From Nitrospirota bacterium (GTDB lineage Bacteria; Nitrospirota; UBA9217): DNA of 60,825 nucleotides. This document shows positions 36,932-40,260 of this stretch, piece after piece (the first letter of the stretch is position 1; each line of letters starts with the position of its first letter). The notes under the pieces are model-generated. The model ran no database searches. It saw nothing but the letters and a program-made list of their open reading frames with translations, and had not been told where the DNA came from. Both the position numbers and the translations under genes were made by a program. The stretch covers positions 1 to 60,825 of the forward strand of contig JBAIYC010000107.1 in NCBI GenBank assembly GCA_037916085.1, written 5' to 3'.

Positions 36932-38089
36932 ATGGATTACTTGCTGACGGAAGAGCAACAGATGATCCGCGACCTGGCCCGCCAGATCGCCGTCGAGAAA
37001 ATCGTGCCCGTCCGGGCCGAACTGGACGAGCACAACAAGTTCCCCGCCGAAATTATGAAGGCCATAGCCCAGGCCGACCTGCTGGGCCTCTATATTCCGG
37101 AAGAGTATGGCGGCTTGGGCCGCGGCAGTCTTGACTTCTACATCGCCATCGAGGAACTCTCCAAGGCCTGCCTCGGCGTTTCCACGACTTACGCAGCAAA
37201 CGCCCTCGGCACCTATCCCCTGCTCCTCTTCGGGACCGAAGAACAGAAGAAGAAATACCTTCCCGACATCGCCGCGGGCAAGAAGTATGTGGCCTTCGGC
37301 CTGACCGAGGCGAACGCAGGGAGCGACGCCAGCGGCATCCAGACCACGGCGAAGCTCGACGGCAACGAATACGTCCTGAACGGCACGAAGCAGTGGATCA
37401 CCAATGGCGGCGAGGCGGACATCTACACGGTCATCGCCATCACCGACAAGACCAAGGGCCCCCGCGGTGCGTCCGCCTTCGTGGTCGAGAAAGGCACGCC
37501 AGGCTTCACCTTCGGCAAGAAGGAGAACAAGATGGGCATCCGGGCGTCGTCCACGACCGAGCTCATCTTCAACAACTGCCGCATCCCCAAGGAGAACCTC
37601 ATCGCCAAGCAGGGCATGGGCTTCATCGTGGCAATGAAGACCCTCGACAGTTCCCGCGCCGGCGTCGGGTCCCAGGGAGTCGGCGTGGCTCAGGGTGCCA
37701 TCGATGAAGCCCTCAAGTTCGCGAAGGGCCGCATCCAGTTCGGACAGCCCGTCACCTCCTTCCAGGCGGTGCAGCACATGCTGGCCGACATGCAGACGCT
37801 CACCGAGGCCGCCCGCTCGCTCGTTTACAACGTGGCAAGGATGATCGACGGCGGCGCCAAGGACTTCTCCCGCGCATCGGCCATGGCCAAGCTCTTCGCC
37901 ACCGATGTTGCCATGAAGGTCACCACCGACGCCGTTCAGGTCATGGGCGGCTCGGGCTACATGAAGGAATACCCGGTCGAGAAGATGATGCGCGACGCCA
38001 AGATCCTCCAGATTTATGAGGGCACCAACCAGGTCCAGCGCAACGTCATCGCCCTGGACATGATCAAGGAAGCGTCGAGGACGAAATAG
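36932..38089 (+). CDS. Acyl-CoA dehydrogenase, short-chain/butyryl-CoA dehydrogenase-like
   Basis: 385 aa. Contains LTEEQQMIRDLARQ, FGLTEANAGSDASG and QWITNGG. Catalytic Glu context is LQIYEGTNQVQR. Confidence 0.9.
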   Translation: MDYLLTEEQQMIRDLARQIAVEKIVPVRAELDEHNKFPAEIMKAIAQADLLGLYIPEEYGGLGRGSLDFYIAIEELSKACLGVSTTYAANALGTYPLLLFGTEEQKKKYLPDIAAGKKYVAFGLTEANAGSDASGIQTTAKLDGNEYVLNGTKQWITNGGEADIYTVIAITDKTKGPRGASAFVVEKGTPGFTFGKKENKMGIRASSTTELIFNNCRIPKENLIAKQGMGFIVAMKTLDSSRAGVGSQGVGVAQGAIDEALKFAKGRIQFGQPVTSFQAVQHMLADMQTLTEAARSLVYNVARMIDGGAKDFSRASAMAKLFATDVAMKVTTDAVQVMGGSGYMKEYPVEKMMRDAKILQIYEGTNQVQRNVIALDMIKEASRTK

Positions 38090-38182
38090 ACTCTGATCCT
38101 CACAATCGATTCTCGCAGTCAAGCTCTCGACCATAGACTGCCTCACTGTGACGAGCGTCGACCGTTTTTCGGAGACAATTTC

Positions 38183-38968
38183 ATGAACATCATCGTTCTG
38201 GTCAAGCAGGTCCCGGACACCGCCGAAGTGAAGATCAACCGGGAGACAAACACCCTCATCCGCGACGGCGTGCCGAGCATTATCAATCCCTACGATATGT
38301 ACGCAATCGAAGAGGCACTCAGGCTCCGCGAAAAGCACGGCGGCAAGGTCACGGCCGTGACCATGGGCCCGCCCCAAGCAGCGGAGGCGCTCAAGGAAGC
38401 GGTGTCCCTTGGTGTGGATGATGCGGTGCTGGTCTCTGACCGGGCCTTTGCCGGAGCCGACACCTGGGCCACCTCTTATGCCCTTTCGATGACGATCCGG
38501 AAGATCGGCGTCTACGACCTCGTCATCGCCGGCAAACAGGCCATCGACGGCGACACGGCCCAGGTGGGCCCCGAAACCGCAGACATGCTCGGCATCCCCT
38601 TCGTCGCCTATATAAGGAAGATCGAGCAGATGCAGGGGAACAAGATGGTCGTCGAGCGGCTTATGGATGAGGGCTACGACGTCGTCGAGACGTCACTCCC
38701 GGCGGTCATCACCGTCGTGAAGGAAATCAATACGCCGCGGCTGCCGTCGCTCAAGGGCAAGATGAAGGCCAAGAGCCTCAAGGTCACCACGTGGAGCGCG
38801 AAGGACGTCGGAGCTGACGAGAACAAGATCGGCCTCAAGGGTTCCCCGACCCAGGTCGTCCGCATATTCCCGCCCGCCCCCCGCGGAGGACGCGAGATGC
38901 TTTCCGGAAGCATCGAGGATCAGGTTGCCGCAGTAGCGAAGAAACTGAAGGAGCAGTCATTGATGTAA
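38183..38968 (+). CDS. etfB: Electron transfer flavoprotein, beta (small) subunit
   Basis: 261 aa. Begins MNIIVLVKQVPDTAEVKINRETNTLIRDGVPSIINPYD and contains GKQAIDGDTAQVGP. Confidence 0.9.
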   Translation: MNIIVLVKQVPDTAEVKINRETNTLIRDGVPSIINPYDMYAIEEALRLREKHGGKVTAVTMGPPQAAEALKEAVSLGVDDAVLVSDRAFAGADTWATSYALSMTIRKIGVYDLVIAGKQAIDGDTAQVGPETADMLGIPFVAYIRKIEQMQGNKMVVERLMDEGYDVVETSLPAVITVVKEINTPRLPSLKGKMKAKSLKVTTWSAKDVGADENKIGLKGSPTQVVRIFPPAPRGGREMLSGSIEDQVAAVAKKLKEQSLM

Positions 38969-39069
38969 CAGCGCGAGAGAGAAGGTGAGAAGTCACGAGA
39001 GCGGGGGAAAATGCCTACCATCCCAACTTCCCACCGTCCCATCTTCCAGATTTTCAAAAGGAGTTCCCC

Positions 39070-40260
39070 GTGAGCGTACGAGTCAAACCCGACACCTGCA
39101 CCGGCTGTGAGACCTGCGTGTCCGTCTGTCCCTTCGGCGCGATCGAGATGAAGGACGGCAAGGCCTTCATCACTGAAGCCTGCACCATGTGCGGCGCCTG
39201 TGTCGAGGCCTGCGAGTTCAAGGCCATTGAGAAGGACATCGAGCAGACCGGCCCGGCCAAGGACCTGTCCGCGTATAAGGGTGTCTGGGTCTTCGCCGAG
39301 CAGCACAAGGGCGACGTCGCCAGCGTCTCTCTGGAACTCCTGGGCGAGGGTCGGAAGCTCGCAGACAAGAAGGGAGCCAAGCTGTCGGCAGTATTCATCG
39401 GCTCGGGCATCAAGGACAAGGCGAAGGATCTGATCGCCTTCGGGGCCGACATTGTGTACCTTGCCGATGACCCGGCGCTCAAGGACTTCAATGACGACTC
39501 CTACGCGGCGGTACTTACCACGCTGGCGCATCAGCACAAGCCGGAAATCATCCTAGCCGGTGCGACCGCCATCGGCCGCTCGTTCTTCCCCAAAGTAGCC
39601 TCGACGCTCTACACCGGGCTCACCGCCGACTGCACGATGCTCGACATCGACACGGCTACCGGCCATCTGCACCAGACCCGGCCTGCCTTCGGCGGGAACA
39701 TCATGGCCACCATCGTGACACCGAACCACCGCCCTCAAATGGCTACGGTCCGGCACAAGGTGATGAAGCCTGCCCGGAGGGATGACGCGCGAAAGGGTGA
39801 GGTCATCGAGGTGGGGTACAATCAGAGCGGAACGCTCCGAACAAAGGTCCTCAAGACCGTCGAGGAACTCGCCGAAACTGTGAACATCTGTGAAGCGGAT
39901 ATCATCGTGGCGGGCGGACGCGGCCTGGGCAGCCAGAAGAACTTCCGGCTCATCGAGGAGCTCGCCAAGGTCCTGGGCGGAGCTGTTGCCGCGACGCGCG
40001 GCGCCGTTGACGAGGGATGGATCCCCTACTCGCACCAGGTCGGTCAAACGGGCAAGACCGTCTGCCCCAAGCTCTACATCGCCTGTGGCATCTCCGGCGC
40101 CATCCAGCATGTGGCGGGCATGTCATCCTCCGAGACCATCGTGGCCATCAACAAGGACCCCGACGCACCCATCTTCAGTGTGGCGACCTACGGCATCGTG
40201 GGAGACGTGCACGAGGTCGTACCGATCATGATCAAGAAGTTCAAGGAAATGCGTGGCTAG
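39070..40260 (+). CDS. etfA: Electron transfer flavoprotein, alpha (large) subunit with an N-terminal 2x[4Fe-4S] ferredoxin domain
   Basis: 396 aa with a GTG start. Contains [12 protein letters not shown] and [12 protein letters not shown], then an EtfA body (...AGGRGLG..., [24 protein letters not shown]). Confidence 0.9.

Follow-up and report, generated by a model that had tools for sequence, protein, structure and literature searches.

The window analysed here is the whole 60,825-nt stretch of DNA from a Nitrospirota bacterium (GTDB lineage UBA9217; contig JBAIYC010000107.1 of assembly GCA_037916085.1), and the element in question is a three-gene module in its fatty-acid synthesis operon, encoding an acyl-CoA dehydrogenase (ACAD) family flavoprotein and the two subunits, EtfB and EtfA, of an electron transfer flavoprotein (Etf). 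The open reading frame (ORF) listing and the Pfam and NCBIfam scans gave the gene order yceD-rpmF-plsX-fabH-[ACAD-etfB-etfA]-fabD-fabG-acpP-fabF-rnc (Table 1), with the module placed between fabH and fabD. ACADs of this clade are tightly spaced, same-strand, and integral members of the operon for type II fatty-acid synthesis (FAS II) in many anaerobic phyla.

Table 1. Features of the fab cluster and its ACAD-etfBA module (positions in the window)
Feature	Position	Strand	Basis
Sigma-70-like promoter site, TTGACA-17-TATAAT, 12/12	34043..34071	+	Consensus match only
yceD (DUF177)	34101..34631	+	Pfam YceD
rpmF (ribosomal protein L32)	34640..34822	+	ORF; L32 Pfam family at orthologous loci
plsX (acyl-ACP:phosphate acyltransferase)	34910..35923	+	Pfam FA_synthesis, 390 bits
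fabH (KAS III)	35920..36900	+	TIGR00747, 450 bits (cut-off 292)
ACAD family flavoprotein, 385 aa, proposed enoyl-thioester reductase subunit	36932..38089	+	Three ACAD Pfam domains
etfB (small subunit, predicted bifurcating type; DGDTAQVG motif)	38183..38968	+	Similarity to bifurcating Etf structures
etfA (large subunit)	39070..40260	+	Fer4 x2 + ETF + ETF_alpha; full-length CarE match
etfA N-terminal 2x[4Fe-4S] ferredoxin domain, residues 1-56	about 39070-39237	+	Two CxxCxxCxxxC motifs
fabD (malonyl-CoA:ACP transacylase)	40327..41259	+	TIGR00128, 343 bits
fabG (3-oxoacyl-ACP reductase)	41320..42060	+	TIGR01830, 337 bits
acpP (acyl carrier protein, ACP)	42122..42358	+	Pfam PP-binding
fabF (KAS II)	42475..43716	+	Pfam ketoacyl-synt N and C domains
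rnc (RNase III), end of the conserved block	about 43718-44410	+	Pfam

The stop codon of plsX overlaps the start of fabH, the gap between fabH and the ACAD gene is 31 nt (36901-36931), with GGAGG located 8 nt 5' of the ACAD ATG, and the gap between etfA and fabD is 66 nt (40261-40326). A consensus scan of the + strand placed no terminator-like site between any two genes of the cluster, the total of such sites in the region equalling the shuffle expectation, and none of the four spacers that were folded performed better than shuffled sequence. The perfect sigma-70 consensus lies 30 nt 5' of yceD and is a likely promoter of the whole rpmF-fab operon. Because the gaps are free of terminators, the spacers fold no better than shuffles, and a perfect promoter-like site lies 5' of yceD, co-transcription of the operon is plausible. 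A preliminary description of this DNA, made from the letters of the window, had given the same gene order and coordinates, which the ORF listing and the domain matches bear out; its two gap lengths were exact, and its remark that the junctions lack a terminator is upheld by the scan and the foldings. The etfA-fabD spacer also carries three tandem copies of GATTTCA followed by a run of eight T residues (40270-40304), and this stretch forms no stable hairpin (z = +1.5 versus shuffles). A 502-aa antisense ORF (36869-38377, - strand) that spans the whole ACAD gene was dismissed, without a domain scan, as a high-GC artefact; long antisense ORFs of this kind occur throughout the window.

One genome per GTDB species was scanned with the ACAD, which yielded more than 594 relatives; the best 80 loci were taken with flanks of up to 10 kb and scored for synteny by tblastn of twelve window proteins. 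Genes of the fab operon adjoin the ACAD in 52 of the 80 loci (51 plus L053, whose fabD meets the contig end), and this linkage spans at least six phyla and at least eight arrangements. The fab-linked taxa include Nitrospirota, Desulfobulbales, Thermodesulfatator, Syntrophobacter, Syntrophorhabdaceae, Margulisbacteria, Saganbacteria, Omnitrophota, and others. The module's presence in fab operons, which the preliminary description had proposed to follow among related genomes, extends well beyond this lineage, and its cross-phylum linkage is solid. The order found in the window was also recovered in three further assemblies (independent gene calls with Pfam hits), and because it is seen again in independent assemblies of relatives, the arrangement is not due to chance.

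With the module denoted as X, the observed orders are fabH-X-fabD, fabH-X-fabG, plsX-X-fabD, plsX-X-fabG, fabF-X, rnc-X, and rpmF-X. The order fabH-ACAD-etfBA-fabD occurs in Nitrospirota and Margulisiibacteriota, fabH-ACAD-etfBA-fabG-acpP-fabF in 16 loci from Desulfobulbales, Thermodesulfatator, and others, and plsX-ACAD-etfBA-fabG in Syntrophobacter. Syntrophorhabdaceae and other Desulfobacterota have plsX-ACAD-fabD or plsX-ACAD-fabG without etf genes, Omnitrophota and relatives have fabF-ACAD(-etfBA) and rnc-ACAD-etfBA with the canonical fabH-fabD-fabG-acpP-fabF series intact upstream, and rpmF-ACAD was found in three loci (L052, L053, and L059). In total, the ACAD gene lies directly 3' of fabH in 28 loci and within a fab cluster lacking fabH in at least 10. 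The median spacers are 44 nt (fabH-ACAD), 34 nt (ACAD-etfB), 43 nt (etfB-etfA), and, between etfA and the fab gene that follows it, 11 nt. The module tolerates splitting, since in a few genomes ORFs separate etfB from either the ACAD gene or etfA (L011 11165-14126, L036 11173-15049, L057 11994-12851, and L059 11258-12602). These ORFs were rejected as partners of the module, being unrelated hypothetical, RNase H-like, or mobile-looking genes that are not conserved.

The ACAD of the window contains all three ACAD Pfam domains (PF02771, PF02770, and PF00441; E values from 1e-29 to 1e-50), and its catalytic Glu, E363 in a YEGT loop, aligns with E376 of medium-chain acyl-CoA dehydrogenase (MCAD). 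Its nearest solved relatives are the butyryl-CoA dehydrogenases (Bcds) of bifurcating complexes, namely those of C. difficile (5OL2_C; 427 bits, 53% identity) and A. fermentans (4L1F). The residues of C. difficile Bcd that dock domain II of EtfA are F155, E198, D345, and Y346 (PMC5691135), and the corresponding positions are kept in the ACAD as W155, E198, E346, and Y347. Curated equivalog models all scored below their cut-offs on this protein; the top model was AcrC (470 bits versus a cut-off of 640), and the NCBIfam models of MbtN, RedW, and PigA matched it at 79-256 bits, far under theirs. In a neighbour-joining tree, the two canonical Bcds fell outside a clade made up of the 73 retrievable ACADs of the surveyed loci, which grouped by phylum; the ACADs of the module are thus a clade distinct from canonical Bcd. 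Seventeen positions reach at least 90% invariance in this clade while differing from both Bcds, and several of these differences are MCAD-like (W155, S131, and the length of helix E). The positions of Q95 and E99 of MCAD, which we take as a rule for the substrate pocket, are occupied in the clade by small residues (S/A/G/T at the former; Ala in 67 of 73 proteins at the latter). A call on chain length or on CoA versus ACP from these residues and the MCAD-length helix E was dropped, and no conclusion is drawn from the two positions because the canonical Bcds are equally small there.

The Etf subunits were compared with five solved bifurcating Etfs (CarDE, T. maritima EtfAB, C. difficile, A. fermentans, and LctBC). 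EtfB scored 221-263 bits against these structures versus about 100 bits against non-bifurcating ones, with the value of 263 bits obtained for CarD; EtfA scored 288-417 bits, and non-bifurcating ETFs gave 96-160 bits for EtfA/EtfB. EtfA aligns with CarE (6FAH_A) over residues 1-391, including the ferredoxin domain, at 417 bits, and has the Arg in TRPAFGGN that contacts N5 of the beta-FAD. A ferredoxin domain is present in all 46 EtfAs that adjoin surveyed ACADs, and 47 of the 49 surveyed EtfBs have the motif Q-A-x-DGDTAQVG, presumably the one that defines bifurcating Etfs. By sequence similarity and its ferredoxin domain, the Etf is predicted to be of the bifurcating, FAD-for-AMP type (NADH-oxidising, group 2), in agreement with the possible bifurcation raised in the preliminary description. 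No genes for the EtfC/FixC quinone reductase or the EtfX/FixX ferredoxin flank the module in the window or in loci L081-L085. Because the ACAD matches Bcd and EtfB and EtfA match bifurcating Etfs, the three genes encode a Bcd/CarCDE-like flavoprotein complex, in which an ACAD-fold enoyl-thioester reductase/dehydrogenase is combined with an NADH-oxidising (bifurcating) type of EtfB and with an EtfA that bears a fused 2x[4Fe-4S] ferredoxin domain. By homology, such a complex would carry out NADH-driven reduction of an enoyl-thioester with co-reduction of ferredoxin.

The module resembles the bifurcating Bcd/EtfAB complexes (C. difficile 5OL2; A. fermentans 4L1F/4KPU) in its three-protein architecture, folds, catalytic Glu, Etf-interface residues, and Etf grouping. 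However, its EtfA has an additional N-terminal 2x[4Fe-4S] domain, its ACAD falls in a separate clade marked by W155, S131, and an MCAD-like helix E length, and its genomic partners are fab genes rather than crt, hbd, and thl. The caffeyl-CoA reductase CarCDE of Acetobacterium woodii (6FAH) is the best structural match for both Etf subunits and has the same ferredoxin-domain fusion in CarE, but the ACAD is nearer to Bcd (427 bits) than to CarC (6FAH_C; 328 bits, rank 19 behind Bcd, SCAD, and MCAD), and genes for caffeate activation are not present, the module residing in a fatty-acid synthesis context. The carrier protein-dependent ACADs, i.e. the acyl-ACP dehydrogenase MbtN and the dehydrogenases RedW and PigA, which act on prolyl groups bound to a peptidyl carrier protein, share the ACAD fold and use phosphopantetheine-tethered substrates, but they act oxidatively in secondary metabolism and have no known bifurcating Etf partner. 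FabI, FabL, and FabV, which belong to the short-chain dehydrogenase/reductase (SDR) superfamily, and FabK, an FMN enzyme with the nitronate monooxygenase (NMO) fold, catalyse the reaction proposed here for the module, trans-2-enoyl-ACP to acyl-ACP, with NADH as the ultimate donor. In fold, cofactors (three FAD and two [4Fe-4S]), and subunits the module is unrelated to these enzymes, and it would also yield reduced ferredoxin. In the fab operons of streptococci and clostridia, fabK occupies the place between fabH/acpP and fabD, and this is also the operon position of the module.

Probes for FabI, FabK, FabV, FabL, FabZ, and FabA, each scoring above the curated NCBIfam cut-off of its own family, matched only fabG in the window. 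This upholds the earlier remark that no recognisable enoyl-ACP reductase (ENR) is present there, an absence with little bearing on the genome, of which the window covers one contig. Within 10 kb of the ACAD in the 80 loci (about 1.3 Mb), no FabI, FabV, FabL, FabZ, or FabA was found, every SDR match being fabG. No thiolase, Hbd, or crotonase gene was detected near any inspected locus or in the window, and domain scans of the window flanks, which encode TPR proteins, a glycosyltransferase, methyltransferases, a radical-SAM protein, PurM, and a MacAB-like ABC system, likewise revealed no beta-oxidation genes. Homologues of known source agree with an origin of the contig in Nitrospirota.

A published matrix records the presence or absence of KEGG orthologues (KOs) in 46 Margulis-, Sagan-, and Melainabacteria genomes (PMC6349859, Supplementary Data 2 and 3). 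In 23 Saganbacteria, K00248 ('butyryl-CoA dehydrogenase') is present together with EtfA and EtfB, and FabI (K00208) and FabK (K02371) are absent; the same genomes have acetyl-CoA carboxylase, FabD, FabH, FabF, FabG, and PlsX/Y, and EtfA is flagged check_length in about half of them (PMC6349859). Three Marinamargulisbacteria show the reverse, with FabI present and K00248 absent, and over the whole matrix K00248 occurs in 24 of 29 genomes without FabI/FabK versus 8 of 17 genomes with one of them, counts in which the Saganbacteria are not independent because they form one clade (PMC6349859). Thiolase (K00626) is missing from all Riflemargulisbacteria and from 24 of 26 Saganbacteria, the exceptions being LO2B (reliable) and LO2A (flagged check_length), and Hbd (K00074) is recorded in one genome of the matrix only and is absent from all 23 module-positive Saganbacteria (PMC6349859). 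Because Hbd is absent and thiolase all but absent, the 'Bcd' of these organisms has no source of crotonyl-CoA. The two data sets are joined by locus L022, where, in a Saganbacteria genome, the ACAD gene lies directly 3' of fabH. The authors of the matrix regarded the proteins as a putative Bcd/EtfAB whose Etf binds AMP and is thus unlikely to bifurcate (PMC6349859). In the Margulisiibacteriota locus L027, the Etf next to an ACAD of the clade comprises a ferredoxin-fused EtfA and an EtfB with DGDTAQVG, and the Etf of the window groups with bifurcating structures; on these grounds, the published non-bifurcating assignment for the Margulis- and Saganbacteria Etf may need to be revisited.

We propose that the ACAD-etfBA module performs the enoyl-reduction step of FAS II, with a probability of about one half. 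An enoyl-reduction role in FAS II would be the simplest reading because a gene for enoyl-thioester reduction stays next to plsX, fabH, fabD, fabG, acpP, and fabF through many independent rearrangements, and also because the carriers include small-genome anaerobes without a butyrate or beta-oxidation pathway. As an enoyl-ACP reductase, the module would complete the elongation cycle, whose fourth and last reaction is otherwise missing. The beta-FAD of EtfB would be reduced by NADH; the high-potential electron would pass through the alpha-FAD of EtfA and the FAD of the ACAD to trans-2-enoyl-ACP, and the low-potential electron through the [4Fe-4S] domain to ferredoxin or flavodoxin, a route proposed because the proteins are homologous to Bcd/EtfAB and CarCDE. 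Every C2 elongation would then return reduced ferredoxin to energy metabolism. Short of even odds, and more tentatively, the module might represent a fifth, mechanistically unrelated ENR class, i.e. a bifurcating ACAD/EtfB/ferredoxin-EtfA enzyme that is NADH-dependent and ferredoxin-reducing and that replaces FabI/K/L/V altogether in some anaerobes. The scope of such a class, which we outline with the same reserve, might comprise Nitrospirota, Desulfobacterota, Omnitrophota, Margulis- and Saganbacteria, and possibly some Bacillota, in which FAS II would be partly energy-conserving.

Several observations weigh against an enoyl-reduction role in FAS II. An ENR of fatty-acid synthesis must accept C4 to C16/18 chains, and the closest characterised relatives of the ACAD are short-chain enzymes. 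The proteins bear no signature of ACP use, with no clade-specific basic docking patch and no loss of CoA-contact residues, although this comparison was uninformative, as was the isoelectric point of the clade (4.9-8.8) for ACP versus CoA. The median ACAD identity across phyla, 67% and on a par with AcpP (FabH, FabG, and FabF, 50-57%), is inflated because the loci were picked by ACAD similarity, which introduces a sampling bias. Fab linkage is lacking in 28 of the 80 loci. Among these, low-GC Nitrospirota (L005, L006, L008-L010, L012-L015, and L017) have a solo ACAD (76-81% identity) with no etf or fab gene within 10 kb, located in L005, L006, L009, L014, and L017 downstream of hpt/queD/tldD-like genes, and Bacillota, Lentisphaerae, one Actinomycetota genome, and some Omnitrophota have a stand-alone ACAD-etfB-Fd-etfA module, next to which no butyrate-pathway neighbours were found. 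Known ENRs also co-occur with the module. The cluster of L027, in which ACAD-etfBA is present, has a 324-aa, FabK-like ORF of the NMO fold (15197-16171) between its acpP and fabF genes. This ORF reaches 180 bits with the FabK model, for which the cut-off is 453, and its Cys-rich C-terminus has a CDDCLKVCSKQYC motif; it might encode an iron-sulfur enzyme like FabX or else a second enoyl reductase. Four Riflemargulisbacteria carry K00248 and FabK together (PMC6349859), and K00248 is likewise present in 8 of the 17 ENR-positive genomes of the matrix. The matrix was derived from metagenome-assembled genomes, FabV and FabL are not among its KOs, and its sensitivity is doubtful because FabZ was undetected in most Saganbacteria. 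Finally, a FabI/K/L/V gene may exist elsewhere in the source genome.

The enoyl-reductase hypothesis of the preliminary description has therefore stood in part: the cross-phylum fab linkage, the bifurcating-type Etf, and the Saganbacteria gene table speak for it, but the co-occurrence with FabK-like genes and the unlinked modules of some Nitrospirota and of Bacillota speak against strict exclusivity. As to an anti-correlation with known ENRs, which it had named as a check, the 23 Saganbacteria lack FabI and FabK, and the four Riflemargulisbacteria and L027 have a FabK-like gene as well as the module.

An unlikely alternative is that the module encodes a genuine short-chain enoyl-CoA reductase for crotonyl- or acryloyl-CoA (Bcd/AcrABC-like), which would either provide a butyryl- or propionyl-CoA primer for FabH or act as an NADH-to-ferredoxin energy module that is co-expressed with the growth-rate-regulated fab genes. 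CoA-dependent enzymes are indeed the top matches among both curated models (AcrC, 470 bits) and structures (the Bcds of C. difficile and A. fermentans), yet all curated CoA-specific models score under their cut-offs and the clade is distinct from canonical Bcd. The frequent position of the ACAD gene directly after fabH (28 loci) would agree with primer supply, but at least 10 fab clusters have the ACAD without fabH. The Bacillota modules stand alone, and several carrier taxa, e.g. Desulfobulbus and Syntrophobacter, are propionate specialists. In two Nitrospirota loci (L081 13618-21158 and L082 9091-16631), whose ACAD is 92% identical to that of the window, yceD-rpmF-plsX-fabH-ACAD-etfBA is present without fabD-fabG-acpP-fabF after it, and etfA is followed by genes for an acetyl/propionyl-CoA-synthetase-like protein, a 280-aa FabD-like acyltransferase, SucC, SucD, a glyoxalase-fold (methylmalonyl-CoA-epimerase-like) protein, and a B12 methylmalonyl-CoA mutase. 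This variant puts the module next to propionate-pathway genes, and the acyl-CoA synthetase, sucCD, and epimerase/mutase genes of so close a relative count in favour of this alternative. Against it, no inspected neighbourhood contains thiolase, Hbd, or crotonase, and the 23 module-positive Saganbacteria, all without Hbd and all but two without thiolase, would have no crotonyl-CoA to reduce. The supply of a primer to FabH, which the preliminary description had offered as its own alternative, fits poorly with both the fabH-less clusters and these Saganbacteria.

It is distinctly improbable that the module is an oxidative acyl-ACP dehydrogenase, i.e. an analogue of H. pylori FabX for the anaerobic synthesis of unsaturated fatty acids or an enzyme of some other lipid modification, with Etf removing the electrons. 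FabX provides a precedent for 'backward' dehydrogenation in FAS II (PMC8626469). The characterised carrier protein-dependent ACADs are all dehydrogenases, and the MbtN, RedW, and PigA families match the ACAD; FabA was found in none of the 80 loci, and L027 has the FabK-like gene alongside the module. However, the Etf is of the NADH-linked bifurcating type, through which oxidation of an acyl-thioester would need reduced ferredoxin as a co-substrate, FabZ already makes trans-2-enoyl-ACP, the module has no conserved isomerase neighbour, and the missing FabI/FabK of the Saganbacteria would be left unexplained. The least probable explanation is that there is no functional link at all, a housekeeping redox module having been inserted ancestrally into a highly expressed operon and passively inherited, as the 28 unlinked orthologous loci and an ACAD tree that tracks taxonomy within phyla (part of the synteny being inherited) might suggest, but the module occupies at least eight positions relative to fab genes across phyla, stays attached through rearrangements that remove fabH, fabD, or fabG-acpP-fabF, and has short spacers that only rarely tolerate foreign gene insertions. 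Selection for linkage is indicated because the module is kept with parts of the fab cluster through rearrangements in different phyla.

Full-text literature searches yielded neither an ACAD/Etf-type enoyl-ACP reductase nor ACAD/Etf in a fab operon, and ACAD, flavoprotein, and ferredoxin types are all absent from a 2022 review of the range of ENRs. The Etf/ACAD cluster discussed in the S. fumaroxidans genome paper (Sfum_3926-3933) is a different cluster and is uninformative for the module. As a bifurcating ACAD/Etf complex, the machine is already known; the novelty lies in the clade, in its constant pairing with a ferredoxin-EtfA, in the genomic setting, and in the substrate and role that are proposed. 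Enoyl-ACP reduction sets the pace of bacterial fatty-acid synthesis and is a major target of antibiotics, and to our knowledge ENRs are only of the SDR type (FabI/L/V) and the FabK type. If the enoyl-reduction role is correct, several uncultured and environmental phyla would have their 'missing ENR' in an ACAD/Etf-type reductase, and the labels 'Bcd/EtfAB, butyrate metabolism', which are routine in metagenome papers (e.g. PMC6349859), would need revision. It would also bear on the predicted insensitivity of such organisms to triclosan and FabI inhibitors and change the reading of the lipid hydrogen-isotope signatures of anaerobes. Furthermore, it would tie anabolism to ferredoxin-based energy conservation, electron bifurcation having so far been described in catabolism only.

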